A stretch of DNA of 64,000 nucleotides from an uncultured Pseudomonadales bacterium (lineage in GTDB: Bacteria > Pseudomonadota > Gammaproteobacteria > Pseudomonadales > Azotimanducaceae): NCBI GenBank assembly GCA_949372755.1, contig CASIBO010000008.1, positions 33,162 through 97,161 on the forward strand, read 5' to 3'. Within the stretch, counting starts at the first letter, position 1. Every line of letters begins with the position of its first letter. The notes under the pieces were generated by a model. The model ran no database searches. It had not been told where the DNA came from and worked only from the letters and a program-made list of their open reading frames with translations. This document shows, one piece after another, positions 43,818 to 61,358 of this stretch. The position numbers and the translations under genes were made by a program.

Positions 43818-44055
43818 TGGTTTCCCAATTTGACCACATCGAAAGCGTAGAGGGTAGATCCAAGGCTGATGCTGACTTCAGGTTGGGAGGGGCTAACGAT
43901 GATGAGCTACTGAACTCGATTTGATTGATTCAGCGTGAAGCTTTAACCTCTTATAACGATTTGAGATTAATAAGCTCTAAGGTTCAACGCCGCGCTTTTC
44001 AGTGCTTTTGGTGCAGCCAACCGTAGCAGTTTATTCCTGGAGAGAAAGCCACCTA

Positions 44056-47000
44056 ATGATCCATTTTTTTATTCCAGCGCTTTTTATGGTGGCGAGTCTC
44101 TTGGCATCTGCAGATTCGCGACCGGGCAGAGCGATCATCGATTTCGAGCCAAACAATTCGATCGACGCGGCGGAATCGATTCAGCTTGGACGTGAGGTCG
44201 ACGGCAGCCTTGCGAGTATGTCTGACGTGGATGTCTACATGGTCACGATTGATAAAACCTCCAAGCTATCGCTAGCCTTTCGAAGTGAGCTTCGAGAAAG
44301 TAACGGCTGGAAGTACGAGTTGCTTAATGAAGAGGGCAGTGTCCTGGGTGCTAGTTTTTGTGATTTTACGGATTGCGAAAATGGCGAGACGCTGTCCGTC
44401 GGCGTTCAAAGTGGTACTTATTATTTGAAGGTGCTTCCAGAATCGGATTCATCAAATGAGAGCTTCCTGCCGGATGGCGCCTACTTTTTTACCCTCACGG
44501 CGGTTGATGAATTTAGTACGGTTGAGTTTGAGCCAAACAATAGTACTGAGGTCTCGCAGGCTGTTAATTTTAATAAGACTTACGAAGGTCAGCTCTCAAG
44601 TATGTCCGATGTCGACTTCTACACGTTCGCGATTGATAACACGGCAAAGCTAGAGATCGCCTTTCAAAGTGAGCTTCGAGAAAGTAACGGCTGGAAGTAC
44701 GAGTTGCTTAATGAAGAGGGCGGTGTCCTGAGTGCTAGTTTTTGTGATTTTACGGATTGCGAAAATGGCGAGACGTTGTCCGTCGGGGTTCAGAGCGGTA
44801 CGTATTATTTGAAAGTGCTGCCAGAATCGGATTCCTCAAGTGAAAGTTTCCTGCCGGATGGCGCCTACTTTTTTACCCTCACGGCGGTTGATGATTTTAG
44901 TACGGTTGAGTTTGAGCCAAACAATAGTACTGAGGTCTCGCAGGCTGTTAATTTTAATGAGACTTACGAAGGTCAACTCTCAAGTATGACCGATGTCGAC
45001 TTCTACACAGTCACTGTTGAGAAAACTAAAAAGCTTGAGATCACCTTTCAAAGTGAGCTTCGCGAAAGTAACGGCTGGAAGTACGAGTTGCTTAATGAAG
45101 AGGGCAGTGTCCTGGGTGCTAGTTTTTGTGATTTTACGGATTGCGAAAATGGCGAGACGCTGTCCGTCGGCGTTCAAAGTGGTACTTATTATTTGAAGGT
45201 GCTGCCAGAATCGGATTCATCAAATGAGAGCTTCCTGCCGGATGGCGCCTACTTTTTTACCCTCACGGCGGGTGATGATTTTAGCACGGTTGAGTTTGAG
45301 CCAAACAATAGTACTGAGGCCTCGCAGGCTGTTAATTTTAATAAGACTTACGAAGGTCAGCTCTCAAGCATGTCCGATGTCGACTTCTACACGTTCGCGA
45401 TTGATAACACGGCAAAGCTAGAGATCGCCTTTCAAAGTGAGCTTCGAGAAAGTAACGGCTGGAAGTACGAGTTGCTCACTGAGGAGGGCAGTGTTCTGGG
45501 CGCTAGTTTTTGTGATTTTACGGATTGCGAAAATGGCGAGACGCTGTCTGTCGGCGTTCAGAGTGGGACGTATTTTCTGAAAGTGCTTCCAGAATCGGAT
45601 TCATCAAGTGAAAGTTTCCTGCCAGATGGCGCCTACTATTTTCTTATTGAATTCGGAGACAAGGATGAAGACGGCATATTTGATGAAGATGATAATTGCC
45701 TAAAAACTGCCAATCCGGATCAGCTCGATACCGACACAGATGGTTTTGGGGACGCCTGTGATGACGATGATGACGATGATGGTACAGCCGATACGAATGA
45801 TGCGTTCCCCCTAAACGCGGATGAAACCGTGGACTCAGATGGTGACGGCATTGGCAATAACGCTGATGCTGATGACGATAACGACGGCGTTGAAGACGGT
45901 AATGACGCATTCCCCTTTGATTCGGCGGAAAACTCAGACGCAGACCTTGATGGCGTAGGCGATAACAGTGACGCGTTCCCGCAGGATGCGAATGAGTCTT
46001 TAGATTCTGATCAGGACGAGGTTGGCGACAATGCTGATAATTGCCCAGAGCTTGGCAACACAGATCAAATCGATACCGATGGCGATGCTGCAGGCGATGC
46101 CTGTGATGCAGATGATGACAATGACGGGGTTTCGGACGAGTTAGATTTTTACCCCCTCGATTCAAGTCGAACGAAATATGGCGGGCAGCGGGCGCTGATC
46201 ATTGCTGGCGGTGGCCCGTACGAAGGTAATTTTCTATGGACGGCAACGCAAAACATGGCCAACGTCGCTTACGACGCGCTGCGGACCCAGGGCTTGAGCG
46301 ATGACAATATTGAGTATCTATCCGAGGAAGTTCGGGCGAGGGTAGATGGCTTGCCAACAGTAGCGAATATTAAAAAATCGATCGAAAGTTTGGCGGACGC
46401 CGATGAAGAAAAGATTACAGATGTGCTGATCTATATGGTCGATCATGGCGATGACGGAGTCTTTAAGATCGACGAATCGACCTTTTTAGGGGCGAGTGAT
46501 CTCAAGGTTTGGTTGGATGATCTGCATGCTAAACACGATATACGATCGACCCTCATTTATGATGCCTGCCAATCTGGATCCTTTATTCCTCTGCTGGGTT
46601 CACAAGACGATACCAACCGGTTAGTCATTACTAGCAGCGCAGCGCTAGAAAATGCATGGTTTGCCAGTGATGGCTATTTATCTTTTTCTTACTACTTCTG
46701 GACTATTTTCAGGAGCGGCGGTGACTTCTCCGAGGCCAGTATCGCCGCGAAAAATGCAATGGGTTTCCAGTTCAGGCAGACCGCTAAGTTTGATGCTAAC
46801 GGGAATGGTGTTAGCGATGAAAAAACAGATAAATTACTGATTAAGGACTTTGCGTTTGGGCTGGGCGCCGTGCAAGCAAGTGAGTTCCCTGTTGTGGGTG
46901 CAATTGAAGTTCAACGCGAACTTAATGGCGAGCTGTCAGTGCCAATCACCGTGGCGTCAGTCGGCGGAGGAACTGCCGTTGAAAAGGTCCTGGTGATACT

Positions 47001-50000
47001 CACGACACCAGACAAACCCATTATAGCGCCGGATGAGCCCTTGGTTAATCTGATCGATACCGAGCTGACACAAAATGAAGACGGAAGCTGGGGTGGGGTA
47101 GTAGCCGGGTTCGAGGCGAAAGGCAGCTATGAATTAAGCGTGATCGCCGAGAGTAAGAGTGGACTGACCTCTTTCCCAACAGAAGAAAACACCAATTCTG
47201 TGACGGTGCAGCAAAATATTGGTAGAGATCCAATTGTGCAGTCAGACACGGATAGAGATGGTGTTGCCGATGCGACCGATCCTGATGACGATAATGATAA
47301 TGTGCTGGACGCTGATGATGCTTTCCCAACCGATGCGGCGGAGTCTAAGGATACGGACGGCGACGGTGTTGGAGATAATGCCGACCTGGATGATGATAAC
47401 GATGCGCTGAGCGATGCGGACGAATTGTTGCTAGGGACAGATTCACTGAATGCGGATTCTGACTCGGACGGATTCAGTGATGGTCTGGATGCGCTCCCGT
47501 TAGATGCAACAGAAAGTATTGACACAGATTCCGATGGTGTCGGGAACAACGCTGATCAAGATGATGATGGCGATGGACTTGACGACATTTCTGAAATCCA
47601 ATCAGGCCTAAATCCGCTGTTAACAGACTCAGACAACGATGGTGTCGATGATGGTATTGATGCGTTTCCCTTAGATGGCAGTGAGACTGTCGATTCAGAC
47701 CTGGATGGAATTGGTGATACCCAAGATGCGTTTCCAACAAACCCAGATGAAACGTTAGACCAGGACGGGGATGGTATTGGTGACAACGCGGATGTGTTCG
47801 ATGATGATCCCTTTGAAGCCTATGACACGGATAGTGATGGTCTTGGCAATAACGCAGATCCAGATGACGACAATGATGGATTCTCGGACGATGAAGAGAT
47901 AGCCGCTGGCACCGATCCACTCGGTGCGTCATCCTGCCCAGGCTGTTTTTCTTTCGACGTTGACAACGACGGTGAGGCCAAAGCGTTAACCGATGGCCTG
48001 CTGGTGATCCGACACCTCTTCGGCTTTAGCGATGAGGCGTTAACCGCTGGTGCCGTCGGTAGCAATGCGAGTCGTACAACGCCTGCAGATATTGCAGCGT
48101 ATCTTACAAACGCGGCGACTGAGCTCGATGTCGATGGCGATGATGAGGCGAAAGCCTTAACCGATGGTTTATTACTCATTCGCCAGCTGTTCGGTTTTAC
48201 AGGTAATGCCTTAACGGCAGGCGCCGTCGGTGAGACCGCAGAGCGCGCCACCGCGAGTGCAATTCAGGCGTACATTACGCAACGCTTGCCTGACTCAAAT
48301 GGTTCGGCCAGTGGCTCGGATGACGGCGTGGGCGCTGACACCGGCGATGCTGGCGGCTCAGATACGGCTGGGTCTGACACTGGTGAAGATACGGGCGGGA
48401 CTACCTCTGGCGGCAGTACCGATGGGGGCACCAGCGACGGCGATACTGATTCGGGCGGCGACACCGGCGGCACTGATGGTGGTTCAGCCGGCACAAAAAC
48501 GATTGAGATAGACGTGGTTTATGACCGAGTGCCTTATCGCGCGCCGGAGTGCACGGCCTCAGGTTGCAGCTATCGGGGGCTGGATTACGCCAACATCGTA
48601 CAAAAGCCTGTGCGGTTTGCTAAAGCTCAGGTTTTGGATGCTGATTCGAAGGCGATCGTCACCGACAATCTTCGAACGGACGCCGCAGGACGATTGTCAT
48701 TCTCGGTTGGAGATGATGACGCTTTTATCGTGCGGGTTTATGCTGAGAGCCCAGGGAATGGCTCCGCCAGCTGGGGACTACGGATCGTTGACAACAATGG
48801 TGCTGATCAGGAAGGCAGCTACCCGGTTTATGTTTTGGAATCCCAAGCCGTGGGCGCGAATGCCGTTGACGAGCCGTTAACGCTACGGGCAGCGTCAGGA
48901 TGGGGGCTCACAAAATATACCCAAACGCGATCGGCCGCGCCGTTTGCGATCCTGGATTCAATGGTTTCGGCGACCCTCTACGCGTTAAGCGGCCGCAGTA
49001 CACTGATTTTTGCACCGGTTGATGTCTATTGGAGCATTGCGAATTCCACAGATACGGTTGGAACCTCGTATTATTCTGGTGCTTATATCATGATCCTTGG
49101 CGATGCCGAGGTAGATACCGATGAATATGATGAATCGGTGATCGTTCATGAGTGGGGCCATTATTTTCAATCAATTTTATCGAAAGACGACAGCCTTGGT
49201 GGCAGCCACGGCGGTGGTGATCTGCTGGATATGCGGGTTGCCTTTAGCGAGGGTTGGGCCAACGCTTATTCGGGTCTTGCGACGGCGCGGGATGCCTATA
49301 TCGATACCTCTGGCAGTCAACAAGCGGGTGGGTTCGGCATCGCACTTGAAATTGAACTAACTGAAAGAGAGGGTGCAGTTAAAGGCTGGTATTCCGAAGA
49401 TAGCGCCCAGTATTTGGTCTATGACTTATTTGATGATGGGGCGTCCGATGACGATAATGTCGCGCTGCCAGTCTCTGTGATGATGTCGTCGCTTATCGAT
49501 TTTATGCCCCAGCAGGCTGCGGCAACATCAATATTCAGCTTCAGTGCTGGGGTAATCGATGCGCAACCGAACCAATCCAGTTTGATCATGGCCTTGTTGG
49601 ATCGCGAAAATATTGGCCGAGGCAGGGTGCAAATTGATTCCCTTGGCTCAGGGGAAACCAATTCGGCAGGCGAATACGCTGCGGTTGAGAATATTGAGGC
49701 GATGACATTGCCGGTTTATACCGTGCTTGATAGCAGTCTGATCTCAGCAGACATGTGCCAAGATGTCTTGCCGGCGTCTGCGCCACGAGTATTCGGTATC
49801 GATAATAAACTGGGGGCTTATCGCTTTGCTCAGTTTGAAATATCTCAGGCAGGCAACTATACCGTCCGACTCACTACGACAGCGAAACCCTTGGGCGCTG
49901 CTAGCGATCCTGATTTTGGCGTTTACAATGCACAGGGCTTGATCGGCCCTCAGCTTAACGAGCTAACGGGAGCCGTGGATCTAGAGTCCCACATCTTGCA

Positions 50001-50106
50001 GTTGGCGAAAGGTCAATATTGGGCTTGGGCACACGATTACAACAATTATCAGCGAGGCAGTAATTCCGGTCGGTATTGCCAGCGTTTGGAGGTCGTGCCG
50101 CAATGA
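44056..50106 (+). CDS. giant secreted multidomain protein: 4x PPC-like repeats, TSP3 repeats, clan-CD C13-like peptidase, TSP3 repeats, dockerin-like pair, Gly/Ser/Thr/Asp linker, HExxH metallopeptidase, C-terminal PPC-like domain
   Basis: Signal peptide MIHFFIPALFMVASLLASA. FEPNNS...SDVD.Y repeats. Clan-CD dyad VDHGDDG (His codon 46444-46446) and YDACQSGSF (Cys codon 46567-46569). HEWGH at 49147-49161 with a downstream EGWANAY. Confidence 0.85.
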   Translation: MIHFFIPALFMVASLLASADSRPGRAIIDFEPNNSIDAAESIQLGREVDGSLASMSDVDVYMVTIDKTSKLSLAFRSELRESNGWKYELLNEEGSVLGASFCDFTDCENGETLSVGVQSGTYYLKVLPESDSSNESFLPDGAYFFTLTAVDEFSTVEFEPNNSTEVSQAVNFNKTYEGQLSSMSDVDFYTFAIDNTAKLEIAFQSELRESNGWKYELLNEEGGVLSASFCDFTDCENGETLSVGVQSGTYYLKVLPESDSSSESFLPDGAYFFTLTAVDDFSTVEFEPNNSTEVSQAVNFNETYEGQLSSMTDVDFYTVTVEKTKKLEITFQSELRESNGWKYELLNEEGSVLGASFCDFTDCENGETLSVGVQSGTYYLKVLPESDSSNESFLPDGAYFFTLTAGDDFSTVEFEPNNSTEASQAVNFNKTYEGQLSSMSDVDFYTFAIDNTAKLEIAFQSELRESNGWKYELLTEEGSVLGASFCDFTDCENGETLSVGVQSGTYFLKVLPESDSSSESFLPDGAYYFLIEFGDKDEDGIFDEDDNCLKTANPDQLDTDTDGFGDACDDDDDDDGTADTNDAFPLNADETVDSDGDGIGNNADADDDNDGVEDGNDAFPFDSAENSDADLDGVGDNSDAFPQDANESLDSDQDEVGDNADNCPELGNTDQIDTDGDAAGDACDADDDNDGVSDELDFYPLDSSRTKYGGQRALIIAGGGPYEGNFLWTATQNMANVAYDALRTQGLSDDNIEYLSEEVRARVDGLPTVANIKKSIESLADADEEKITDVLIYMVDHGDDGVFKIDESTFLGASDLKVWLDDLHAKHDIRSTLIYDACQSGSFIPLLGSQDDTNRLVITSSAALENAWFASDGYLSFSYYFWTIFRSGGDFSEASIAAKNAMGFQFRQTAKFDANGNGVSDEKTDKLLIKDFAFGLGAVQASEFPVVGAIEVQRELNGELSVPITVASVGGGTAVEKVLVILTTPDKPIIAPDEPLVNLIDTELTQNEDGSWGGVVAGFEAKGSYELSVIAESKSGLTSFPTEENTNSVTVQQNIGRDPIVQSDTDRDGVADATDPDDDNDNVLDADDAFPTDAAESKDTDGDGVGDNADLDDDNDALSDADELLLGTDSLNADSDSDGFSDGLDALPLDATESIDTDSDGVGNNADQDDDGDGLDDISEIQSGLNPLLTDSDNDGVDDGIDAFPLDGSETVDSDLDGIGDTQDAFPTNPDETLDQDGDGIGDNADVFDDDPFEAYDTDSDGLGNNADPDDDNDGFSDDEEIAAGTDPLGASSCPGCFSFDVDNDGEAKALTDGLLVIRHLFGFSDEALTAGAVGSNASRTTPADIAAYLTNAATELDVDGDDEAKALTDGLLLIRQLFGFTGNALTAGAVGETAERATASAIQAYITQRLPDSNGSASGSDDGVGADTGDAGGSDTAGSDTGEDTGGTTSGGSTDGGTSDGDTDSGGDTGGTDGGSAGTKTIEIDVVYDRVPYRAPECTASGCSYRGLDYANIVQKPVRFAKAQVLDADSKAIVTDNLRTDAAGRLSFSVGDDDAFIVRVYAESPGNGSASWGLRIVDNNGADQEGSYPVYVLESQAVGANAVDEPLTLRAASGWGLTKYTQTRSAAPFAILDSMVSATLYALSGRSTLIFAPVDVYWSIANSTDTVGTSYYSGAYIMILGDAEVDTDEYDESVIVHEWGHYFQSILSKDDSLGGSHGGGDLLDMRVAFSEGWANAYSGLATARDAYIDTSGSQQAGGFGIALEIELTEREGAVKGWYSEDSAQYLVYDLFDDGASDDDNVALPVSVMMSSLIDFMPQQAAATSIFSFSAGVIDAQPNQSSLIMALLDRENIGRGRVQIDSLGSGETNSAGEYAAVENIEAMTLPVYTVLDSSLISADMCQDVLPASAPRVFGIDNKLGAYRFAQFEISQAGNYTVRLTTTAKPLGAASDPDFGVYNAQGLIGPQLNELTGAVDLESHILQLAKGQYWAWAHDYNNYQRGSNSGRYCQRLEVVPQ
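44143..45655 (+). repeat. four tandem 384-bp (128-aa) near-identical coding repeats
   Basis: The FEPNN start recurs at 44143, 44527, 44911 and 45295. Off-frame ORFs 44456-44653 and 45224-45421 are almost identical, which indicates a 768-bp higher-order periodicity. Confidence 0.9.
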
Positions 50107-50771
50107 AAAACCTATTGATGATGCTCTCGGTTCTGGCATTGCTCGGTTGCAAGGCTCTTGATTCAACGGTGAGTGCGAACCCTGAGGGCCCAGTTGGGGC
50201 GGAGGTCATTCCCGGAACCGACACTACAACCTCTAAGGCGACTAGCCCGTTGACCAACCCGCTGCCGGTCAGCGATGGTGAGGTTAGCAGGCGTGCTAAC
50301 GGCAATGGTCCGTTGTGGACGATCCGCTCTGAGCAAATTGCGGCGCGATCGCAAGGTCACAGCGTAAAAACCCAATCACGAACCGCCAAGCCGCAAGGCC
50401 CCTTTACGGTGCGGTATGTCTTAGAGAGCTGGACCCCTGATGACCACCGTTTGGTGGTAGAAGTGCAAAGTAATCAAGTCATTAGTGATTGGTGGCTTGA
50501 TTTGCCGCAAATATCTGAAAAGCTCGAAACAGCTCAGTTTGCTAAGAAACATAATGCGACAGAGCCGGGCGCGGCGGAGTCGAGGACTTTTAGGTTGGGT
50601 ACACTGCCCCGGGCCAACCGATTGTTGTTGACCGTCCGAGCATTGGTTTCGGGTGTAACGACCTCAAAAACGGTTGTGATACCCCTAAGGTCGCGCTTAA
50701 ACCAAGGCGTTCGAACCTGTGATGAGGCTAGGACTGATTGCGTCGTGGCGTTGCCGGGAACGCTTCGATGA
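50103..50771 (+). CDS. lipoprotein of unknown function
   Basis: MKNLLMMLSVLALLGC lipobox. The ATG overlaps the stop of the giant gene (ATGA). Confidence 0.6.
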   Translation: MKNLLMMLSVLALLGCKALDSTVSANPEGPVGAEVIPGTDTTTSKATSPLTNPLPVSDGEVSRRANGNGPLWTIRSEQIAARSQGHSVKTQSRTAKPQGPFTVRYVLESWTPDDHRLVVEVQSNQVISDWWLDLPQISEKLETAQFAKKHNATEPGAAESRTFRLGTLPRANRLLLTVRALVSGVTTSKTVVIPLRSRLNQGVRTCDEARTDCVVALPGTLR

Positions 50772-50877: not shown

Positions 50878-50952
50878 CGGAAAAGGATTTGTGTCCATTT
50901 ACGACCGATTGATAGGTATGTTTAGCCAATATAATTGAAGCTTAGAGGAACT

Positions 50953-53900
50953 GAGATGAAGAACCTGAAACATTCATTGTTGCTTTTAATGAAAGCGGCA
51001 TTAGCGAGCGTGGTGTTAATGGCCTCTGCTGCGGTTGCAGACAACCAGATTATTACGGTGTCCCCTGCAGAACCAGCGTTCGGAGAGAGTGATGAGTCGG
51101 TTACTTTTTCGGTGGTCTATGCAACCGACCCGGAAAATACGGGGGTTCCTGGCTTCGGGCTAAAGATGTACTTTAATAGTGCCGTTTTAGAAGGCAAGGC
51201 ACTCAATGTGAATCCTGATATCGGTGGTCAGCAGACGGGTCCTTCTGTTCAAGCCGATAGTGCGGACGGCGATAATGATGCAAATACCGATAAAGTCGTT
51301 GTTGTAGCCTGGATCGAAAATACCAAGCAAGAAGGTTTTGGTGATACGGTGAGTGTTCCTTGGCCGGAAGTTGAAGATTTTACCGGTGGTGTATCGATAA
51401 TCGATGTCACCTTTGGTCGAGCCGACACAACTTTTACAGGAAAGAGTCAGGTTAATTTTATACTCAGTACAGCGGCAGGGTTTGACGCCAAGGCTGATTC
51501 GTTTGATGTTATTTTCAAAGACGATGAAACTGCGCCCGTAGTCACACTGGGCGAGTCTAGCGTCACAATTGAAGCCGTTGGGCCGCTAACCTCGGAAGAT
51601 AACGCTACAGCCCTTGCCGATTTTATTAAAACCATAACGGTTGAAGATAACAAGGATACTCTGACCACTGAGAATCTAGACGCATTTGTCACCCAAGATG
51701 GCGCGTTGGTTGCAGCCCCCGAAGGCTTTGCACCAGGCACTTACGAAATCACATTTATTGCATCGGATAGTTCCGGCAATAAGTCAGAAGGTGTCGTGGT
51801 GACCCTGACGGTTGCTGATACGACCCAGCCGGTCCTAAGCGGTGTATCCAATGTCGCATTATCCGCCGCAGATAAGAATGGTGCTCCATCTGCTGGCGTA
51901 CTTGCCGCCGTCGCGCTTGATAGCGTTGATGGTGAAGTTGTGGTCGCTTATTCCGTTGGTGGGGCTGATGTGGGAGATAATTTCCCACTAGGCGAGACAA
52001 CCGTTACGGTAAAAGCAGCCGACTCAGCTGGCAACATGGCGGAAGGCACCTTAGTCGTTACCGTTAGTGATACCACCAGTCCAGTCATTGTTTCTGCTGC
52101 CGGGGTAGCCTTGGAAGCCGATGGCGAGCTGGGGTATGGTGGTAGTACAGCAAGTATTATTGCCGCAATCGGTGTGTCGGATAATGTTGATGATGCGCCG
52201 GCGGTCACGCTAGGCGCGTCTGTGCCGGAAGTCTTGCCGTTTGGGGTTACCCAAGTTGCTGTAGTGGTGACGGATGCCGCGGGTAACGCAACAGAGGGTA
52301 CTGTGCCCGTTACCGTTGCCGATACTACGAAACCAGAATTCTCGGGCGCTAACTTACTGGTGCTAACCGTTGATGCGGCTGATGAAGTGGTTGCTAGTGA
52401 TGATGCCCGGGTCACGACCTGGTTGGCCGGCGTCACCGCAACGGATATTGTCGATGGCGCAACGGATGTTACCAACAGCGCGTTACCCAGTACTTTTGCA
52501 GTGGGTGAAGCGGTTATTACCTTTACATCCTCCGATTCGCGAGGTAATGAAGCATCAGCCGAGGCCACCATACTCGTGACGGTCGGGCCAGCGGTCACGG
52601 TTGCGGACGCTATAACAGTAGTGTCGCTAGATGGCGCGGCTTTGCCAGCGTCTCAAACGCAAATTGCGGCGTTTATTGCTGCCGCTAGTGCAACGGATTT
52701 CTCGGGCGTGGTCTTGGATGTGACGAACGATGCTCCAGATACTTTCGCTATTGGCGACACCTTAGTGACCTTTAGCGCGGTTGATGCCGATGATCGACAA
52801 GGCCAGAGCAGCTCGACGGTCACGGTTGTCGCAGCATCTGCTGAAAACGACACCGATAATGATGGCATCGATGATCTGTTTGAAGTTGAAAATGGACTCG
52901 ACCCCAATGCAGACGATGCTGAGGCTGATGCCGATGGTGATGGCCGAAGCAATCTAGACGAGTACCTAGAAGGTACAGATCCTAATGTAGATGATGTGAA
53001 ACCGATTGTTACCGCACCGGCCGATGTGGCGACGGGTGCAACTGGCGCGCTCACGAAGGCTGATCTAGGCGAAGCAACAGCGAGCGATACCTTAGATGGC
53101 GATCTTACGCCCATTGCCGATAACCCTGGTCCTTATGCACCCGGTAGCTACACGGTCACATGGTCGGCGACGGATGCGGCTGGCAACGTGGGTATTGCGA
53201 CGCAATCCGTCGTGATATCGCCGCAGGCGTCGGTCACGCCAAAAGGTCGGGTAGCGGAAGGCGCAGACTTCCTGGTTGAGGTCACATTAAATGGGCCCGC
53301 GCCAGCGTATCCGGTTGAAATCCCTGTAACGCTTGGCGGCACAGCTGAGCTAGACAGTGATTACACCGTATCCGTATCGTCCATCGTGATCGAGTCGGGT
53401 CGAATCGGTATTATGACAATCTCGGTGCTGTCTGATGAAGTTGAAGAGGGTACAGAAAGCATTGAAGTGACCTTGGGTGCACCTGCTGCCAATGCAGTAT
53501 TGGGCTCAGCCTTAACAAGCCTGATTAGTATTATTGAAACGCAGGAGCCACCTGCTCTGAAGTTGTCCGTTAGTCAGGGCGATCAAAATGGTCGGAAGGT
53601 TGCAGCGGAAGGTGGGTCCGTTATGGTCACGCTCAGTATCAAGGACCCCAATGGCACGCATACAGTGGACTGGAGCGGATCAGACAACAACCTGGTCGCA
53701 ACCTCTGAAGACGGTGCGATGATGTTCGAATTTGATCCAGCCGCATTAGCAGAAGGTGGCTATGAAGTCGCAGCGATTGTCACAGATAGTGGCATTGCAG
53801 AGACAACCTTCGATATTGGCGTCTTGATTCGAGTCGCTGCAGAAGCGGTTGAAGCGGACTCGGATGGTGACGGGGTTCCAGATAGTAAGGATACGTCTGA

Positions 53901-54609
53901 AGAAACGAATGTTATCGCGGTCGACGCCGACGCCGGCACGGCCGCTGTAACGGCGGATGCGGGCGTGAAGCTTGTAATCGGTGATGCGGCTCAAGCGTCT
54001 GGCACATCCGGTATCGCGGTCTCGGAAGAGACTATCGCGGCCAGCGGAGCGGATGGTGGTGAAGCGCCAAGCAATGGTGATGACGAAGACTTCAACTACC
54101 CAGCTGGGGTCTACGACTTCCAAGTTCAAGATCTGCCGGTACCGGGTCAATCTGTTCGATTGAGCATTCCGGTCGCAGCAGGCATTCCGGCTGATGCTGT
54201 CATGCGGAAGTATACGGAAGCTGAAGGCTGGTTTGATTTCGTCATCGATGAAAACAATGGCGTTGCTTCGGCCCCTGGTGACGATGGTGCTTGCCCATCC
54301 GTCGGCTCTGAACTGTATGTTGATGGCTTAACGGAAGGCGACACCTGCCTGCAGCTCACCGTACAAGACGGTGGTCCAAACGATGCAGACGGCTCCGTGA
54401 ACGGTGAATACGATGATCCAAGCGGGATTGCTGAAGCCGCGCCAGTTAAAGTTGTTATCGTTCCTGACACCTCGAGTCGAAAGAAAGTCGGCGGGGGTTG
54501 TAGTGTCTCTGAAGGCGGCCCGGGTGATTTTGGTCTTGTGTTCTTAGCGTTGCTCGGCGCGCTCGGTTTGTTCCGAAAGCGCCTTGCTGCGAGCCTTCTG
54601 AATCGTTGA
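50953..54609 (+). CDS. large cell-surface protein: cohesin-like N-domain, HYR/Ig-like repeats, TSP3/EF-hand-like segment, Calx-beta, choice-of-anchor-like domain, C-terminal Cys-containing TM sorting signal
   Basis: Signal peptide MKNLKHSLLLLMKAALASVVLMASAAVA. Repeated DTT.PV...G...V...A.D..GN units. The Calx-beta-like segment is AEGADFLVEV...LDSDYTV...EGTESIEVTL. The C-terminus reads DGGPNDADGSVNGEYDDPSG, then GGGCSVSEGG, a hydrophobic helix, and RKR. Confidence 0.8.
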   Translation, partial: EMKNLKHSLLLLMKAALASVVLMASAAVADNQIITVSPAEPAFGESDESVTFSVVYATDPENTGVPGFGLKMYFNSAVLEGKALNVNPDIGGQQTGPSVQADSADGDNDANTDKVVVVAWIENTKQEGFGDTVSVPWPEVEDFTGGVSIIDVTFGRADTTFTGKSQVNFILSTAAGFDAKADSFDVIFKDDETAPVVTLGESSVTIEAVGPLTSEDNATALADFIKTITVEDNKDTLTTENLDAFVTQDGALVAAPEGFAPGTYEITFIASDSSGNKSEGVVVTLTVADTTQPVLSGVSNVALSAADKNGAPSAGVLAAVALDSVDGEVVVAYSVGGADVGDNFPLGETTVTVKAADSAGNMAEGTLVVTVSDTTSPVIVSAAGVALEADGELGYGGSTASIIAAIGVSDNVDDAPAVTLGASVPEVLPFGVTQVAVVVTDAAGNATEGTVPVTVADTTKPEFSGANLLVLTVDAADEVVASDDARVTTWLAGVTATDIVDGATDVTNSALPSTFAVGEAVITFTSSDSRGNEASAEATILVTVGPAVTVADAITVVSLDGAALPASQTQIAAFIAAASATDFSGVVLDVTNDAPDTFAIGDTLVTFSAVDADDRQGQSSSTVTVVAASAENDTDNDGIDDLFEVENGLDPNADDAEADADGDGRSNLDEYLEGTDPNVDDVKPIVTAPADVATGATGALTKADLGEATASDTLDGDLTPIADNPGPYAPGSYTVTWSATDAAGNVGIATQSVVISPQASVTPKGRVAEGADFLVEVTLNGPAPAYPVEIPVTLGGTAELDSDYTVSVSSIVIESGRIGIMTISVLSDEVEEGTESIEVTLGAPAANAVLGSALTSLISIIETQEPPALKLSVSQGDQNGRKVAAEGGSVMVTLSIKDPNGTHTVDWSGSDNNLVATSEDGAMMFEFDPAALAEGGYEVAAIVTDSGIAETTFDIGVLIRVAAEAVEADSDGDGVPDSKDTSEETNVIAVDADAGTAAVTADAGVKLVIGDAAQASGTSGIAVSEETIAASGADGGEAPSNGDDEDFNYPAGVYDFQVQDLPVPGQSVRLSIPVAAGIPADAVMRKYTEAEGWFDFVIDENNGVASAPGDDGACPSVGSELYVDGLTEGDTCLQLTVQDGGPNDADGSVNGEYDDPSGIAEAAPVKVVIVPDTSSRKKVGGGCSVSEGGPGDFGLVFLALLGALGLFRKRLAASLLNR

Positions 54610-55155: not shown

Positions 55156-55455
55156 ATGCCATTTTTTATGAGACTCGGTCTGCTCTGGTTGCTGAGCGCC
55201 TTTTGCTCAGCGTCGTTCGCCAGTATCCCGGCTGGGCGAATCAATGCGATCAATGCGCAGTTAGCGGCAGGGCAGTATCAAGCAGCAGAAAAAGCAACTT
55301 TAGTTCTACTCGAATCCCAGCAACTCTCAACCGATGATGTGAACACCTTAGAGGCTCTGGCGAGTGGTTTCACGGCTGCAGGACTTCGTGACCAAGCCGG
55401 GACGCTGTTATCCAAAGGCTGCAGAACTGTTAGGTGCACCGCAAACCAGCAGTGA
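55156..55455 (+). CDS. signal peptide plus helical-repeat fragment, probably the displaced N-terminus of the CHAT protein
   Basis: MPFFMRLGLLWLLSAFCSASFA signal peptide. The ORF overlaps the next ORF by 92 nt in a different frame, and the repeat-like sequence continues across the junction. Confidence 0.45.
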   Translation: MPFFMRLGLLWLLSAFCSASFASIPAGRINAINAQLAAGQYQAAEKATLVLLESQQLSTDDVNTLEALASGFTAAGLRDQAGTLLSKGCRTVRCTANQQ

Positions 55456-57379
55456 TCGAGCAACGTTGCTGCGTATTGGTGCGAGCTTGCAAGCTTTAAA
55501 CCTACGAAGTCAGGCCGCGGGAATTCTGACTCGGGGCATTCGAATTACAGGTAAAGATGCAGCCGATAGTTTAAATGCCGCTGGGTTTCAGTCGCTGGGT
55601 GATCTTGCCTTTGAAACCGGTGATCTAGAGGCTGCAGATTCCGCTTATACCAATTCTGAAACGGCCCTGGAGGCTGATGACCTTCAAGCGCGTGCGGCTT
55701 TATTGGTGCGGCAAATTAAGCTCGCAGTCGCCAGCACGGATGCCGTTCAAACCCGAGACTACTATAAAGCCTATCAAGGCCTACTCTTACAATTAACGGG
55801 TGATACAAGTCTTGCCCGAATGAACTTAAACGTTGCGGCAAGCCTGATGGCATCTGGCGAGTCAACCTGGGCGCCCGATGTTACGCTGCTCATCGAACAG
55901 TCAGCGATGATTGGTTCGGCGGACGCGCAGCTGATGTCCGAGGTGGAACAAATGCGCGGTCAGGTGGCCGCGCTCTCGGGTCAGCCGGATGCGGCGCTGA
56001 AGATGCTCAGGCGCGCACTCGCGGGACTGGGCTCGGACGCAACGCCTGCTCAAACCTATCGTCTGTATTGGCAGATCGGTAAGCTTCAGGCTGAGGCCGG
56101 TGAAATCGATGCGGCATTAAAAAATTACGAGCGCGCCATCGCAAATCTAGACCGGATTCGCGGAGAGTTGTTGCAGGGCAGCACCTTGGTGTTTACCGAA
56201 AGGGTGCTACCGGTTTATCAAGGCTACATCGAGTTGTTATTAGAGAAAGCCAAGGTGCCTGGTCAGGAGGGCAAGTGGTTAGGGCAAGTGCAACAAACCC
56301 TAGAAGGCCTTAATGCAGCAGAAATTTTAGATTATTTTGACGACAACTGCGTGCTACCTCGCGATGTGATGAGTCTTAGCAACACGGCGGCCGGGACGGC
56401 GGTGTTGTACCCGATTACGCTAGGCACGCGTCCCGTACTGCTCGTGCGAACTGCGAACGGCATCTTCCGATTTGATCTGGCGGTGGGTAACGCCGAACTA
56501 AAATCGATGGCGCTGGCTTTTCGCGAGGCCATCACAAATCCCGAAACATCCCTGAGCGCTTATCAAGCCCAAGCGAGCGCACTCTTCACGGCGCTTTTAG
56601 GGCCTGCTCAGGGCTTGATCGAGCGATCTTCGATTACGACGCTGGTCACGGTGCCAAGTGCGTATTTACGGCTTGTGCCCATGGCGGCGCTGCACGATGG
56701 CGAAGACTTCCTAGTCAACCGGTATCAGTTAGCCACCACTCTTGGGCTGCAATTGACGGAAAATGCGAGCGTTGACAATGTCAACAGCTCGGCTTTTATC
56801 GGCGGCGTGTCGGACGCGGTACAAGGGTTTGTTTCCCTGCCGGGTGTTGAAACCGAACTGGCAGAACTGAAAGGCGCGTTATCTGCAACGCCGCTGCTGA
56901 ATCGAAATTTTTCAGTCGCCAATGTCTCAAGACGCTTAAGTTCTGGCAATGACAGCATTGTTCATCTAGCGACGCATGGTTATTTCGATGGTGATCATGC
57001 CAATTCATTTCTGTTAGCGCATGATGACAAAATCACGCTCGATCGGTTGCAAAGCACAGTGGGGGCTCGGCGTTTCACGGGTAATCCCTTAGACCTTTTA
57101 GTGCTCAGTGCGTGCGAAACCGCGAAGGGAGACGAGCGGGCGGCGCTGGGGTTGGCCGGGGTGTCTCTCAAGGCTGGTGCGCGCAGCACGGTGGCATCCC
57201 TCTGGCCCATTGCGGACGCGGCAACTGCCATGCTGATGAAGCGCTTCTATGAAGAATTGCGCGCCGGAAAAAGCAAAGCGGCGGCGCTTCAGTCGGCCCA
57301 GCAGATGCTGTTGTCCGACCCCGAATGGGCGCATCCAAATTATTGGAGCCCCTACCTACTCATCGGCAATTGGCTCTAG
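55364..57379 (+). CDS. TPR-like repeat / CHAT domain protein (caspase-fold clan CD peptidase)
   Basis: The C-terminal CHAT signature is HLATHGYF...LLVLSACETAKG...ASLWPI.D. The N-terminal region is helical-repeat. Confidence 0.8.
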   Translation: MVSRLQDFVTKPGRCYPKAAELLGAPQTSSDRATLLRIGASLQALNLRSQAAGILTRGIRITGKDAADSLNAAGFQSLGDLAFETGDLEAADSAYTNSETALEADDLQARAALLVRQIKLAVASTDAVQTRDYYKAYQGLLLQLTGDTSLARMNLNVAASLMASGESTWAPDVTLLIEQSAMIGSADAQLMSEVEQMRGQVAALSGQPDAALKMLRRALAGLGSDATPAQTYRLYWQIGKLQAEAGEIDAALKNYERAIANLDRIRGELLQGSTLVFTERVLPVYQGYIELLLEKAKVPGQEGKWLGQVQQTLEGLNAAEILDYFDDNCVLPRDVMSLSNTAAGTAVLYPITLGTRPVLLVRTANGIFRFDLAVGNAELKSMALAFREAITNPETSLSAYQAQASALFTALLGPAQGLIERSSITTLVTVPSAYLRLVPMAALHDGEDFLVNRYQLATTLGLQLTENASVDNVNSSAFIGGVSDAVQGFVSLPGVETELAELKGALSATPLLNRNFSVANVSRRLSSGNDSIVHLATHGYFDGDHANSFLLAHDDKITLDRLQSTVGARRFTGNPLDLLVLSACETAKGDERAALGLAGVSLKAGARSTVASLWPIADAATAMLMKRFYEELRAGKSKAAALQSAQQMLLSDPEWAHPNYWSPYLLIGNWL

Positions 57380-57391
57380 GAGGGGACACGC

Positions 57392-58972
57392 ATGAAACGC
57401 ATACAAACGATATTAACCACCTGTCTTCTGGCGCTGTCTTTAATCACCAGCAGTCAGGTTGCAGCTGATAATCAAGATCTTGCTAGTGGTATTGTTCTAA
57501 AAGCAGTGACGGTGACCGATGCCACAGTCTTTAGCGAGACCGACCTAAACACTGCAATGGCACCTGCGATCGGTAAAACCGTCTATATTGAAGACATCCT
57601 AGGGATGGTCGACGCCGTTACCGCGCTTTACGTCGAGGCCGGCTACATCACCTCTGGCGCTATTCTGCCTAATCAAGATGTTGCTGATGGCCGTATTACG
57701 ATTGCGGTCGTTGAAGGGCAGCTAAATGGCGTGATCATCAATAGCGCAGGGCGTTTAAAAACGGCTTTCATTGAGTCTAAGATTAAGGCCACCGCCAGCG
57801 GCCCGCTCAATCTTGCGGATTTGCAGAGGGCGATCTCTCGACTTGAGGCGGAACCAACAATTTCCCATGTGCGGGGCGATTTAAAGCCGGGCGACACGCG
57901 GGGCACGTCGATTTTGGATCTTGAAGTCGTCGAAGCCGATGCGTTTAAAATTTTGGTTGGCGCCGACAATTACAAAAGCCCCAGTGTGGGTGAGGGCCAA
58001 GCCGTTGTCTCGCTTGCACATTTAAACCTGCTGGGCTTCAACGATCAGCTGAATGTTAGTGCTCAGCGGAGTGATGGCGTGGATGCCATATCGGTTCGCT
58101 ACGATGTACCCATTTCGATCTTACGATCTCGCCTGGCGGTCTATCATAGCCAAGGTGACACCTTGGTGGTTGAAGAGCCTTTTGATGAAATTTTTCTCGA
58201 AAGCGAGACCGACACGTCCGGGATTCAACTTTCCTCAACTTGGCGAGAAGACAATGGGCGGTCTTGGCGAACGAATCTGTCTTGGGAAACCAAGGAGAGC
58301 CTCACGACGTTGCTCGGTTTGCCCTTTGACTTTTCGCCCGGGTCTCGCCTGGGTGTGACCGAAGCCAGTGTGCTCGGCTTCAATGTTGAATATAGCCAGC
58401 GCGGCGATGGTATGGGATTCATGCTTCGTGCTGGCTTGCGTTCAGGCAGCGATGACAAGGGCCAGGGCAATGCAGCCGATGAGGGTGATTTCAGTCTCTA
58501 TCAGGTGCAAACCCAGTGGATTAAGCGTTTAAACCAAGATCCGCTGCAACCCGCGTGGCTGCTCAACTTTAATCTCAATTATCAGGAAACGAGCGACACG
58601 TTACCGGCATTTGAACGCATGGGCTTGGGCGGTCATGGCACGGTGCGGGGTTTTCGGGAAAATCGTTGGCTAAAAGACTCGGGGCTGACCGCATCGCTGA
58701 TGCTCAGTGCGCCGCTGCTGGAAGCGGGTAGTCAAAACGGTATCGCCGTGCGTGCGATGCTGTTTTACGACTACGGTCGAGGGGAGAACTCGGTGGCAGC
58801 GCTTAATGTTGATACCGAGGTTTCGCTTAGAAGCGCAGGCTTTGGGTTAACCGCCGACTATCAAAAATTGAAGTTTCGAATTGAACGCGCGCTGCGCCTG
58901 AACAAGAAAGACAAACTCGGCAATGCCTTACAAGACAGCGGTATCCATGTGGGAGTGACGTATGAACTCTAA
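57392..58972 (+). CDS. ShlB/FhaC/HecB-family two-partner secretion outer-membrane transporter (TpsB)
   Basis: Signal peptide, POTRA-like N-terminus, a beta-barrel with the GLGGHGTVRGF motif, and a terminal YEL. Confidence 0.88.
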   Translation: MKRIQTILTTCLLALSLITSSQVAADNQDLASGIVLKAVTVTDATVFSETDLNTAMAPAIGKTVYIEDILGMVDAVTALYVEAGYITSGAILPNQDVADGRITIAVVEGQLNGVIINSAGRLKTAFIESKIKATASGPLNLADLQRAISRLEAEPTISHVRGDLKPGDTRGTSILDLEVVEADAFKILVGADNYKSPSVGEGQAVVSLAHLNLLGFNDQLNVSAQRSDGVDAISVRYDVPISILRSRLAVYHSQGDTLVVEEPFDEIFLESETDTSGIQLSSTWREDNGRSWRTNLSWETKESLTTLLGLPFDFSPGSRLGVTEASVLGFNVEYSQRGDGMGFMLRAGLRSGSDDKGQGNAADEGDFSLYQVQTQWIKRLNQDPLQPAWLLNFNLNYQETSDTLPAFERMGLGGHGTVRGFRENRWLKDSGLTASLMLSAPLLEAGSQNGIAVRAMLFYDYGRGENSVAALNVDTEVSLRSAGFGLTADYQKLKFRIERALRLNKKDKLGNALQDSGIHVGVTYEL

Positions 58973-61358
58973 AATGACTTTTCGATCGATCGCCTATTCG
59001 GCAACGTGTTCTGCTTGGTTGCTTGCCAGTTCAGCGGTTATCGCCGATATCACGCTTCAGGAAACGGGCGAAACCTTAACCGGGGACATGACCATCAGCC
59101 AAGAGATGGGGCTGACCCAAGGTACAAACTTGTTGCACACCTTTTTAGCTTTTAACGTTGATCCGGGTGAATCAGCGACCTTTACGGGTAGCAATGCCAT
59201 TACTAATATTGTTGCGCGGGTAAGTGGTGATGGGGCCTCCCAAATCGATGGGTTATTACGCTCAACCATTACCGATGCGAACTTGTTCCTGATTAATCCC
59301 AACGGGGTTGCGTTTGGGGCGGGCGCCAGTATTGATATTAACGGCAGCCTGCACATCTCAACAGCGGACAGCATTGTCTTCGGGGATGATTCCAGGCTGT
59401 TGGTGTCGGACACCGGTGCCAGTGGCTTTACCGCTGCGGCGCCATCGGCCTTTGGTTTTTCAGGGGTTGGGGCTGGCATCACCTTCGACGGCACGATGAT
59501 TTCAACCCTCAACACGGATCGCGCGGCAGGCCTTTCCCTAGTGGGCGGTGATATTACGTTGTCTGAGAGCTCGATTACGTTTGCCGGTGGCACCATTGAC
59601 CTGATTGCGACCCAGGGCGAGCAGGATGTGGCCATCACGATGGCAGATCGCAGCTTTGACAACACGGCCCTAGGCGCGATTACGATTACCAATGCAGAAT
59701 TCGTGGCCGGCAAGGTTGATCTGGACGTCAGTGGCGATGCGGCAGGGCAGTTATCGCTTGCCGGCGCCAACGTGACCTTAGAGCGCGCGTTCGTGTTTTC
59801 CGATACCGAAGGCACCGGCACCGGTGGCGCCATTAATGTGCTTGCGACCGAGGCGTTAACGTTAATCGAGGGTGCGCGGATTACCACCGATACCACAGGT
59901 GGCGGCGCGGGCGGTGACCTGGTCATCCTGGCTGGCGATGTGTCGCTATCGGGCACCAACACAGCACTTGCCGCAAGTACGATTTCGGCTGGAGGCATTG
60001 CCGGCAGCATTGACGTGACAGCCAATAGTATTGACATCCTTGACGGCGCTCAGGTGAGCTCGGTAACCAGTACGGCCAGTCCGGGCGGTGATATTACCCT
60101 CAACACCGGTGATTTAACGATGGCGTCTGGTGGCCAAATCTCGGGGCAAGCAACCTCGCGCGGGCAAGGCGCTGATGTGGTCATTAACGCAACCGAATCA
60201 ATTGTCATTGATGCCACCGGTACCAACCCAGGCGAAGAGACTGGGATCCGGGTCGACAGCATTAATTTCTTACCGTTCTTCGTGGGCGGGGATGCGGGCG
60301 ATATTGTCATTACAGCCCCCAGCTTAACGCTAAAGGGCAGTGCGGTGATTGCAGCGCAAGCGTCCTTGCCCAGTTCAGGCGCACCTGGCGCCATCACGTT
60401 GAATGTCGAGCAACTGGCAATTGAAGGCGGTAGCTCTGTTTCAACCTTATCGAGCGCAAGTGCCGATGCGGGCGCAATCTCCGTTAATGCGAGCACCGTA
60501 TCCCTTATCGGCGCGGGTTCTGGGTTTAACTCAACCACGCGGCGAAGCGGTGGGGGCGGCAGCATTGTCGTTATGGCCGATAATTTCACGATGAGCGGCG
60601 GCGCAACGGCAGATACCTCGACAGAAGGCGCTGGGGCTGCCGGTAATATCAGTATTGATGTCACGGGTTCGGTCAACTTGACGGATGCGAGCTCTGAACT
60701 TGCCAGTCGGTCAAGCGGTGAAGGCAGGGGAGGTAATATCAGTGTCTCGGGTGAATCCTTAACGTTTAGTAACAACGGCGTGCTGTCGGTCACCGCAAGT
60801 GGCGCCGGAGACGCCGGTAACATCAGCCTTATGGCCCTGAACCGGCTGGAAGTATTGGATGGCGCGCAGGTTCAAACCAATGCTGAAAACTCGGGTGGGG
60901 GTAATATTGATGTTGCGGTCATCGATACCATCTATTTGCGCAACGGTACCCTGACGGCTTCCGCTGGTGGCGCTGAGGGCAGTAGCAACGGCGGTAATAT
61001 CAACATCGACCCCAGATTCCTGATTTTAGACAACGCAAGCATTGTGGCCCAGGCGGTTGCAGGCAATGGCGGTGTGATCGAATTGGTCGCAGACAACTAT
61101 ATCGCCGACATTAACAGCTTCTTGGATGCCTCTAGCGAGCTTGGGAATGATGGCGAGGTGCGCATTACAACACCTTATAACTCCATCTCTGGCGTTTTAG
61201 GCACGCTCAACGCGAACTTCGATGCGGTGGCGCAGATCGCAACCGATGCGTGCTCCGCGCGTAATTTAGAGCAGCGTAGCAGCCTGATCGTTGAGCAGAA
61301 ACGCGGCAACCTTAATGCGCCGGGTGATTTAAGGCCGATTCAGGGCGAAGAGTGCTAG
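58962..61358 (+). CDS. filamentous-hemagglutinin N-terminal (TPS) domain protein, beta-helical TpsA exoprotein
   Basis: The TPS domain reads GTNLLHTFLAFNV..GESATF....IVARVSG...SQIDG......NLFLINPNGVAFG. A Gly/Ala/Ser/Thr-rich beta-helix repeat region follows. It overlaps tpsB by 11 nt. Confidence 0.85.
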   Translation: MNSKMTFRSIAYSATCSAWLLASSAVIADITLQETGETLTGDMTISQEMGLTQGTNLLHTFLAFNVDPGESATFTGSNAITNIVARVSGDGASQIDGLLRSTITDANLFLINPNGVAFGAGASIDINGSLHISTADSIVFGDDSRLLVSDTGASGFTAAAPSAFGFSGVGAGITFDGTMISTLNTDRAAGLSLVGGDITLSESSITFAGGTIDLIATQGEQDVAITMADRSFDNTALGAITITNAEFVAGKVDLDVSGDAAGQLSLAGANVTLERAFVFSDTEGTGTGGAINVLATEALTLIEGARITTDTTGGGAGGDLVILAGDVSLSGTNTALAASTISAGGIAGSIDVTANSIDILDGAQVSSVTSTASPGGDITLNTGDLTMASGGQISGQATSRGQGADVVINATESIVIDATGTNPGEETGIRVDSINFLPFFVGGDAGDIVITAPSLTLKGSAVIAAQASLPSSGAPGAITLNVEQLAIEGGSSVSTLSSASADAGAISVNASTVSLIGAGSGFNSTTRRSGGGGSIVVMADNFTMSGGATADTSTEGAGAAGNISIDVTGSVNLTDASSELASRSSGEGRGGNISVSGESLTFSNNGVLSVTASGAGDAGNISLMALNRLEVLDGAQVQTNAENSGGGNIDVAVIDTIYLRNGTLTASAGGAEGSSNGGNINIDPRFLILDNASIVAQAVAGNGGVIELVADNYIADINSFLDASSELGNDGEVRITTPYNSISGVLGTLNANFDAVAQIATDACSARNLEQRSSLIVEQKRGNLNAPGDLRPIQGEEC

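Follow-up and report, generated by a model that had tools for sequence, protein, structure and literature searches.

A predicted secreted protein of an uncultured Pseudomonadales bacterium joins a C13-like cysteine peptidase domain to a thermolysin-fold zinc peptidase domain of an uncurated family

MARTX toxins and large clostridial toxins combine a clan-CD C80 domain with other enzymatic modules, which include other peptidases in some MARTX toxins. In the thermolysin-like peptidases of family M4, the second histidine of the HExxH motif and the glutamate are spaced by 19 residues, and vibriolysin-type precursors carry a C-terminal domain of the PPC fold. For legumain, a clan-CD peptidase of family C13, an LSAM-type prodomain has been described, and Arg44 and His45 were found to contribute to the Asn/Asp-specific S1 site (PMC4357240). 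The protealysin-emfourin operon encodes an M4 peptidase together with a co-transcribed protein inhibitor (PMC9505478). Here we analyze a gene at positions 44056-50106 of a 64,000-nucleotide stretch of DNA from an uncultured Pseudomonadales bacterium (contig CASIBO010000008.1; the whole stretch is hereafter the window). Its single product combines a C13-like cysteine peptidase domain in the N-terminal half, the head, with a zinc peptidase module at the C-terminus, the tail. With a probability of roughly 0.6, we propose that this product is a modular exoprotease that is exported by Sec, binds calcium and consists of a variable head and a conserved tail.

The frame at 44002-50106 on the plus strand is the sole open frame of the region and is uninterrupted over 6 kb; the gene at 44056-50106 encodes 2016 residues. 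The original prediction, made from the DNA letters alone, had placed two catalytic signatures on one polypeptide, and the single uninterrupted open reading frame 44056-50106 (+) indeed carries both. All four quoted motifs were found where they had been placed, with MVDHGDDG at residues 794-801, YDACQSGSF at 835-843, VIVHEWGHYF at 1695-1704 and SEGWANAY at 1731-1738, and the two codons singled out for mutation are those of Cys838 (nucleotides 46567-46569) and Glu1699 (nucleotides 49150-49152). The gene and its catalytic features are as follows.

44056..50106, + strand: gene for the 2016-residue exoprotein, stop codon included (single open reading frame; intact orthologues in the related contigs L049 and L051)
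46171..46875, + strand: C13-like (clan CD) cysteine peptidase domain, residues 706-940 (Pfam, PDB profile, AlphaFold2, Foldseek, and the ratio of nonsynonymous to synonymous substitution rates, dN/dS)
46444..46446, + strand: catalytic His797 in MVDHGDDG (aligns with the catalytic His of OaAEP1 and other asparaginyl endopeptidases)
46567..46569, + strand: catalytic Cys838 in YDACQSGSF (aligns with the catalytic Cys)
48808..49707, + strand: thermolysin-fold zinc metallopeptidase core of the tail, uncurated family (AlphaFold2, Foldseek, homologues, dN/dS)
49147..49161, + strand: HEWGH zinc-binding and catalytic motif, His1698, Glu1699 and His1702 (H219, E220 and H223 of the module)
49207..49209, + strand: invariant His1718 of the GGxHG loop (G236, G237 and H239 of the module)
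49249..49251, + strand: Glu1732 in SEGWANAY, proposed third zinc ligand (E253, followed by G254, of the module)

The head matches Pfam Peptidase_C13 (PF01650) with 40.9-45.9 bits against a cut-off of 22.8 and a best E of 7e-12, over the central part of the profile only (positions 110-189 of 258). Searches of the PDB with phmmer and with a profile of A2, the family alignment of C13-like units, revealed similarity to plant asparaginyl endopeptidases (AEPs), human legumain and the GPI transamidase (best profile E of 2.5e-11). Residues 699-1065 were modelled with AlphaFold2 from 14 homologues, and the mean predicted local distance difference test score (pLDDT) is 87.9. All top 50 Foldseek matches of this model in the PDB are C13 structures, namely legumain, plant AEPs and peptide asparaginyl ligases (PALs), and PIGK, with E from 7e-11 to 2e-8 and a probability of 1.0. 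In the model, the His797-Gly798 and Ala837-Cys838 pairs are preceded by strands 789-795 and 830-836, respectively. In A2, the motif YDAC.S.SF, with the catalytic cysteine, is invariant and DHG, with the catalytic histidine, nearly so. Altogether, a Pfam score above threshold, a model that matches C13 structures and a histidine and cysteine that align with catalytic residues bear out the predicted assignment to clan CD and family C13, and confirm the head as a peptidase domain with a complete catalytic signature and the legumain/GPI8 fold.

The description "legumain-like" fits the domain in fold and dyad, but not in specificity. Our comparison of the S1 site covers the positions of legumain Arg44 and His45, which are occupied here by Leu and Trp (N-F-L-W versus N-Y-R-H, in a low-scoring segment of the alignment). 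The replacement is family-wide, with a consensus of NxLW, leucine in 197 and tryptophan in 239 of the 319 units. As the Arg/His pair of the legumain S1 site is thus Leu/Trp, Asn specificity is not expected of the head. An equivalent of legumain Asn42 is probably present in the same low-scoring segment. In the model, an LSAM-type C-terminal prodomain is absent after the C13 domain, and an all-β Ig-like domain is found there instead.

The tail comprises 537 residues (1480-2016) and matches no Pfam or NCBIfam model (for Pfam, none at E<=10); phmmer and profile searches of PDB sequences gave nothing meaningful. Its family has more than 1816 homologues, mostly stand-alone proteins of 500-800 residues that are labelled "hypothetical", "putative lipoprotein" or "PKD domain-containing" and belong to Kangiella, Arenicella, Steroidobacteraceae, Collimonas, Variovorax and others. 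We aligned 36 diverse homologues with 34-63% identity to the window tail (alignment A1; module numbering plus 1479 gives protein numbering). In these 36, Pfam peptidase models gave no match at E<=0.01, and only accessory β-sandwich domains were recognized. Ten residues are invariant in A1: H219, E220, H223, G236, G237, H239, D246, R248, E253 and G254.

The AlphaFold2 model of the tail has a pLDDT of 91.6 and a predicted template modelling score (pTM) of 0.92, and consists of a β-sandwich, a mixed α/β core and a C-terminal β-sandwich. The HExxH motif sits on helix 214-229, and the invariant Glu253 on the following helix 247-263. Structural similarity search using Foldseek revealed that the core resembles ProA of Legionella, aureolysin, LasB, vibriolysin and PlM4P, with a probability of 1.0 and E from 5e-7 to 1e-4; M36 peptidases are also among the matches. 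The C-terminal domain resembles the collagen-binding domain (CBD) of ColG (2o8o and 1nqj) and the PPC domain of Bacillus anthracis collagenase (5sv5), with E from 5e-6 to 5e-5 and a probability of 1.0. The FTP/PepSY propeptide was absent in Pfam searches of the tail, where a CarboxypepD_reg-like β-sandwich precedes the core.

Membership of the tail in MEROPS family M4 was considered and rejected, given the lack of a Pfam M4 match, an hhalign probability of 0.7% and the empty searches of PDB sequences. As neither the sequence searches nor hhalign showed a link, the M4 likeness is one of fold level only. The original prediction of a gluzincin for the HExxH region agrees with this fold, as M4 thermolysin-like structures are the best PDB matches and the HExxH motif and the glutamate lie on successive helices. 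By its fold, the tail core is a gluzincin of an uncurated family and not an M4 member, with Glu1732 as its predicted third zinc ligand. A search of the literature found nothing relevant on HEWGH or on multi-peptidase fusions.

A word-based search had returned only 14 relatives of the head and made the C13-like family look rare, a view that was overturned by an exhaustive profile search. The latter showed that the C13 domain with its following Ig-like domain (the C13+Ig unit) is very common: at 50% identity, 5290 clusters have E<=1e-3, and 2257 have E<=1e-30. Most members are giant proteins of bacteria that also carry PKD domains, dockerins, or propellers of the NHL or LVIVD type, and no characterized protein was found among these bacterial relatives. 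The family representatives P0135-P0284 mostly have two C13+Ig units per protein, and many carry NHL or LVIVD β-propellers. In about half of all C13-like units of the family the histidine and/or the cysteine is missing, and the single unit of the window keeps both; the pattern suggests that the two-unit proteins are pairs of an active enzyme and a pseudo-enzyme. The original prediction had called two peptidase chemistries in one chain uncommon, and the counts agree: none of the 150 best C13-like representatives carries the tail, and a C13 domain is listed for none of the 120 best homologues of the tail. The former set is biased towards two-copy giants, so that 0 of 150 understates the sampling of close single-copy relatives, and metagenome contigs were scanned directly for this reason.

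The scan with the C13 region revealed six contigs with 88-92% identity. Among the relatives, L049 encodes an intact orthologue of 2017 codons without stops, with 81% identity, L051 encodes an intact orthologue with three PPC repeats, and L011, a Pseudomonadales metagenome-assembled genome (MAG), covers residues 604-2016 in one frame. L049 and L051 stem from different projects, and the contigs L049-L054 come from polar and marine samples. Similarity to MAGs labelled Pseudomonadales and Candidatus Azotimanducaceae places the organism of the window among the marine Pseudomonadales. Compared with L049 or L011, the window gene gave dN/dS values of 0.056-0.061 for the C13 domain and of 0.055-0.056 for the core of the metallopeptidase, with no change in the catalytic motifs. 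Purifying selection is strong on both of these domains.

The ATG at 44056 is the likely start codon because GGAGAG lies upstream and the encoded N-terminus (MIHFFIPALFMVASLLASADSRPGRAIIDFEPNNS) matches the homologues P0002, P0014 and P0015, with which the signal-peptide N-terminus is shared. The protein is predicted to carry a Sec-type signal peptide. Among its 19 cysteines, 18 form nine obvious pairs and Cys838 alone is unpaired, as expected for an extracellular protein with a free catalytic thiol. A scan for promoters and terminators showed no enrichment over shuffled sequences. The modules that surround the two catalytic domains are listed below.

44056..44112, + strand: Sec-type signal peptide MIHFFIPALFMVASLLASA (predicted; read from the sequence as a hydrophobic core followed by ASA|D)
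44131..45660, + strand: four tandem 128-residue PPC-like repeats (EFEPNNS...DVDFY...GTYYLKV) with a Cys pair in each (tandem array and alignment A4)
45661..46170, + strand: TSP3 calcium-binding array 1 with 9 DxDxDG motifs (Pfam TSP_3/TSP3_bac and NCBIfam throspo3_MtsC, region 534-697)
46876..47235, + strand: Ig/FN3-like β-sandwich, always found after the C13 unit in this family (all-β in the model)
47236..47940, + strand: TSP3 calcium-binding array 2 with 11 motifs (Pfam TSP3_bac; head/tail junction near nucleotide 47625)
47941..48291, + strand: dockerin-like EF-hand repeat pair (read from the sequence; Dockerin_1 weak)
48292..48492, + strand: low-complexity G/D/S/T/A linker of 67 residues (composition G23 D14 S11 T11 A5)
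48493..48807, + strand: N-terminal β-sandwich of the tail, CarboxypepD_reg-like (model strands 2-99; PF13620 in 26 of 36 homologues)
49708..50103, + strand: C-terminal β-sandwich of the tail, PPC/collagen-binding-domain fold (Foldseek)

The four repeats, the two TSP3 arrays and the linker were found as first described, whereas the labels "PPC-like" and "dockerin" are weaker and stay below threshold. At the DNA level the repeats form a tandem array with a period of 384 bp, 3.7 copies and 90% matches; the Pfam PPC model reaches E of 0.026, below its cut-off, and the best PDB profile matches, all collagenase PPC/CBD domains, are weak (E of 0.12-1). Copies of this repeat (44215-45642 in the window) number four in the window and in L049, three in L051 and one in the tail-less relative L053. 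TSP_3 and TSP3_bac score above their cut-offs, and the two arrays together hold 20 DxDxDG-type motifs with about 32% Asp. The Ig/FN3-like domain is indicated by weak FN3/monobody matches, by family profile matches that span the C13 domain and the sandwich, and by InlK_D3-like matches in relatives. The dockerin-like pair reads DVDNDGEAKALTDGLL... and DVDGDDEAKALTDGLL..., and its duplicated DxDxDG...ALTDGLL is evident by eye; Dockerin_1 gives E of 0.095 and 13.3 bits against a cut-off of 22.9. The same cassette also terminates many exoproteins of this lineage. Compared with the orthologues, the linker has a dN/dS of 0.36, the highest in the whole protein.

Comparison with related contigs revealed that the head varies on a constant unit, which consists of TSP3, the dockerin pair, the linker and the tail. 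At the nucleotide level, the window and L001 are similar in the flanks and, from about nucleotide 47625 inside TSP3 array 2, in the 3' part of the gene; the 5' 3.6 kb (PPC repeats, TSP3 array 1, C13 and Ig) are replaced by other genes in L001. Syntenic contigs share a DUF938 methyltransferase gene as upstream neighbour; downstream they share a small lipoprotein, a HYR-domain exoprotein, a CHAT-TPR protein and a TpsB/TpsA pair. The constant unit carries a C13 head in the window, L011, L049-L052 and L054. It carries a reprolysin-like metzincin head in L012, in one intact open reading frame, and also in L002/P0005. L013, an Azotimanducaceae MAG, has yet another head with HEAAH...SEGW and no Pfam match; at 8510-9400 of this contig the head spans about 250 residues with LVHEAAH...SEGW, and may be another uncurated small metallopeptidase. 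An M4 head is possibly fused to the tail in L001, a frameshift-rich assembly in which the frames change two or three times. The tail occurs without a head in P0011, P0002, P0014 and P0015, and in the latter three the end of TSP3 array 2 directly follows the same signal peptide and one half of a PPC repeat. Tail-less C13 proteins that end right after the dockerin pair were found in L053, L003 and L004.

A likely route of exchange is seen in L049, where a reprolysin-like gene lies directly upstream of the orthologue. The TSP3-dockerin DNA of this upstream gene (5028-5567) and that of the orthologue (9543-10082) are 83% identical over 540 bp, and recombination between the two cassettes would give exactly the architecture of L012 and L002. 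This upstream reprolysin-like gene is absent from the window. Compared with L011 and L049, the window gene has a synonymous substitution rate (dS) of about 0.55 in TSP3 array 1, the C13 domain and the dockerin pair (45661-48291), and of about 1.5-1.6 in the metallopeptidase module (48493-50103). The contrast suggests that head and tail have different histories, as by recombination, and is consistent with a mosaic history of the locus. The locus is a natural case of protease domain shuffling, in which a zinc-peptidase tail is kept and the heads differ in related genomes.

An extension of this idea, which we offer tentatively and hold to be less than probable, regards the locus as a "protease chassis". 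The tail and its lipoprotein partner would be constant, and the heads (C13-like, reprolysin-like, M4, another HExxH domain, or none) would be swapped via the TSP3-dockerin DNA; head and tail would depend on each other for maturation or release, and the partner would control the tail. If this were true, marine populations could re-tool their extracellular proteolysis by cassette exchange.

We propose the following course for the modular exoprotease. The fusion would have arisen by homologous recombination between near-identical TSP3-dockerin cassettes at the ends of neighbouring exoprotease genes. The product would be exported by Sec and then released outside the cell, where the TSP3 and dockerin-like repeats would bind Ca2+ and fold after secretion. 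Both catalytic domains would act on extracellular protein as independent endopeptidases with complementary specificities, the zinc enzyme being thermolysin-like and the cysteine enzyme not Asn-specific. The PPC-type domains might serve as substrate-binding or maturation modules, and the chain would probably be cut at the exposed G/D/S/T linker. The partner lipoprotein would most likely serve the tail enzyme specifically, as its inhibitor or anchor.

Several points weigh against this proposal. The target-normalised template modelling score (TM) of the tail to M4 structures is moderate (0.54-0.61), and hhalign of A1 against a genuine M4 domain, at the 0.7% given above, shows no sequence-level link between the two. 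The third zinc ligand, proposed to be Glu1732, could also be His1718. The dyad loss in about half of the family copies implies that non-catalytic use of the C13 fold is common, and the catalytic competence of both domains is predicted from residues, fold and selection only. The window partner is tied weakly to distant partners, by one phmmer edge (E of 4.8e-5) and an hhalign probability of 32%. Finally, the relatives L001, L002, L011 and L052 show frame changes, which may reflect assembly errors or real decay.

An alternative is that the C13 head is a processing protease that cuts its own chain in cis, as in MARTX toxins, and thereby frees the zinc peptidase or sheds the PPC repeats. The original prediction had likewise suggested self-processing, next to a degradative role with several specificities. 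Clan CD includes dedicated autoprocessing domains, for example in MARTX and large clostridial toxins. The position of the head, mid-chain between flexible calcium-binding arrays and the low-complexity linker, would suit such a role, and its altered S1 pocket is compatible with a narrow, self-directed specificity. However, thousands of large proteins contain the C13+Ig unit but no second peptidase, and the tail in turn functions without a C13 head in its headless and stand-alone forms. Since the unit also occurs in the tail-less orthologues L053, L003 and L004, which end after the dockerin pair, its role would be independent of the tail. We regard processing in cis as unlikely.

The gene that follows the exoprotease gene bears on a further alternative.

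50103..50771, + strand: partner gene for a 222-residue lipoprotein (MKNLLMMLSVLALLGC), whose ATG overlaps the stop codon of the exoprotease gene (CAATGA)

We inspected 44 tail loci that span Gamma- and Betaproteobacteria and range from Kangiella to Collimonas. A small gene, encoding 170-225 residues with a signal peptide or lipobox, starts -33 to +63 nucleotides from the stop codon of the tail gene in 43 of these loci, and the single exception is at a contig end. The partners form one single-linkage cluster in phmmer comparisons; jackhmmer from the window partner reached the close clade only. They match no curated family, and searches of Pfam, NCBIfam and the PDB gave weak Ig-like hints only. 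A conserved ...SMPA.E motif ends the partners at the C-terminus, and the window partner lacks it. The tail enzyme and its partner could on this basis be a protease and its cognate inhibitor, an immunity-type pair, which would make the protein a targeted effector or a tightly controlled enzyme and not a general nutrient scavenger. The strictly conserved pairing across both classes with often overlapping stop and start codons, the export signals and shared C-terminus of the partners, and the protealysin-emfourin precedent, in which one operon encodes an M4-fold protease together with its inhibitor (PMC9505478), all speak for the idea. Yet the partner resembles no inhibitor family beyond the weak Ig-like hints, that of the window is without the SMPA.E motif, and accessory domains such as PPC, PKD and β-sandwiches typically belong to degradative exoproteases. 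An effector with its immunity protein is thus, in our view, rather improbable here.

We see still less likelihood that the C13-like domain is not a hydrolase, and acts either as a binding pseudo-peptidase or as a transpeptidase or ligase in the manner of GPI8 or the plant PALs. Both of the latter share the fold and are among the fold matches, the S1 pocket is unlike that of legumain, and the dyad-less half of the family indicates that non-catalytic use is tolerated. Against these stand the His-Gly and Ala-Cys pairs and the probable Asn42 equivalent kept in the window copy, as well as a dN/dS of about 0.06 with unchanged motifs in orthologues; an acceptor or substrate partner is not evident. 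Lastly, long internal repeats (384 bp x 3.7 and the TSP3 arrays) can mislead assemblers, and frames change in the four related contigs named above, but an assembly chimera or a decaying pseudogene is very unlikely because the window frame is uninterrupted over 6 kb, full-length orthologues from different projects are intact, dN/dS is low across all domains (about 0.06 in both catalytic ones) with motifs kept, and the flanking genes are conserved.

Further genes follow the partner in the window. At 50935-54609 (+), a 1224-residue exoprotein with HYR and Ig-like domains is encoded, and it occupies the same place after the partner in L001, L002, L011, L013 and L049. The region 55364-61358 (+) encodes a TPR-CHAT protein, a TpsB transporter of the ShlB/FhaC type and a TPS-domain TpsA exoprotein, and L001 and L002 have the same cluster downstream. 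Like the C13 domain, CHAT has a caspase-like fold of clan CD. At about 62500-63400 lies a further TSP3-type array with a 108-bp period, reading DNCP...DEDLDGDGNACD, which probably belongs to a plus-strand gene that runs off the end of the window.

The fusion of two peptidases is unusual yet recurrent in this lineage, and both folds, like multidomain exoproteases in general, are already well known; current ideas are not overturned, and we infer the function of the two-peptidase protein. The tail represents a large uncurated zinc-peptidase family of Gamma- and Betaproteobacteria, for which the model gives a thermolysin-like fold with confidence and in which the two-gene arrangement is conserved; the family is ready for entry into Pfam or MEROPS and for biochemical work. 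The bacterial C13-fold units represent a very large divergent branch with an S1 pocket unlike that of legumain. The domain shuffling seen here is traceable, and suggests that, through recombination at repeat cassettes that they have in common, secreted proteases acquire and lose entire catalytic domains. By such shuffling, marine particle-degrading bacteria could diversify their extracellular proteolysis.

Among the known systems, MARTX and large clostridial toxins also are giant secreted chains with a clan-CD cysteine peptidase, other catalytic modules and a module content that varies between strains. They differ from the window protein in that its domain is C13-like by profile and fold and not C80, that it lacks RTX-type repeats and a translocation region, and that it has a predicted Sec signal peptide and the accessories of degradative exoproteases. 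Similar to the M9 collagenases ColG and ColH and to PPC/PKD exoproteases, the tail has a zinc endopeptidase followed by a β-sandwich of the calcium-dependent PPC/CBD fold; PKD domains are carried by tail homologues, and the N-terminal repeats show the EPNN...DxDxY...GxYY pattern. Compared with ColG and ColH, however, the core is unrelated in sequence and nearer to M4 than to M9 in fold, the PPC-like repeats are N-terminal, and a second peptidase of another class is present.

Compared with legumain, AEPs and GPI8 (C13, clan CD), the head passes the Pfam threshold and shares the α/β fold, the His-Gly...Ala-Cys order and a probable Asn42 equivalent. It differs in the Leu/Trp that replaces Arg44/His45 in S1, in the Ig-like domain that stands in place of the LSAM-type C-terminal prodomain of legumain, and in its setting, being bacterial and extracellular in giant multidomain proteins of a family that is often tandem with one degenerate copy. 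Similar to the protealysin-emfourin operon (PMC9505478), the locus has a small gene directly behind that of a thermolysin-fold peptidase, on the same strand. The partner here differs in its length of about 170-225 residues, its secretion or lipidation, its probable Ig-like fold and its lack of similarity to curated families, and the inhibitor role is a hypothesis. The tail shares with the M4 peptidases (ProA, LasB/pseudolysin, aureolysin and the vibriolysin MCP-02) the two-lobed gluzincin fold in which the HExxH helix is followed by the Glu helix, and with vibriolysin-type precursors the C-terminal PPC-fold domain. It differs from M4 in a glutamate that lies 29 residues after the second histidine in an E-G-W context, in an invariant GGxHG loop between HExxH and this glutamate, in having neither a sequence relationship nor an FTP/PepSY propeptide, and in possessing a CarboxypepD_reg-like β-sandwich and a conserved small downstream partner gene.

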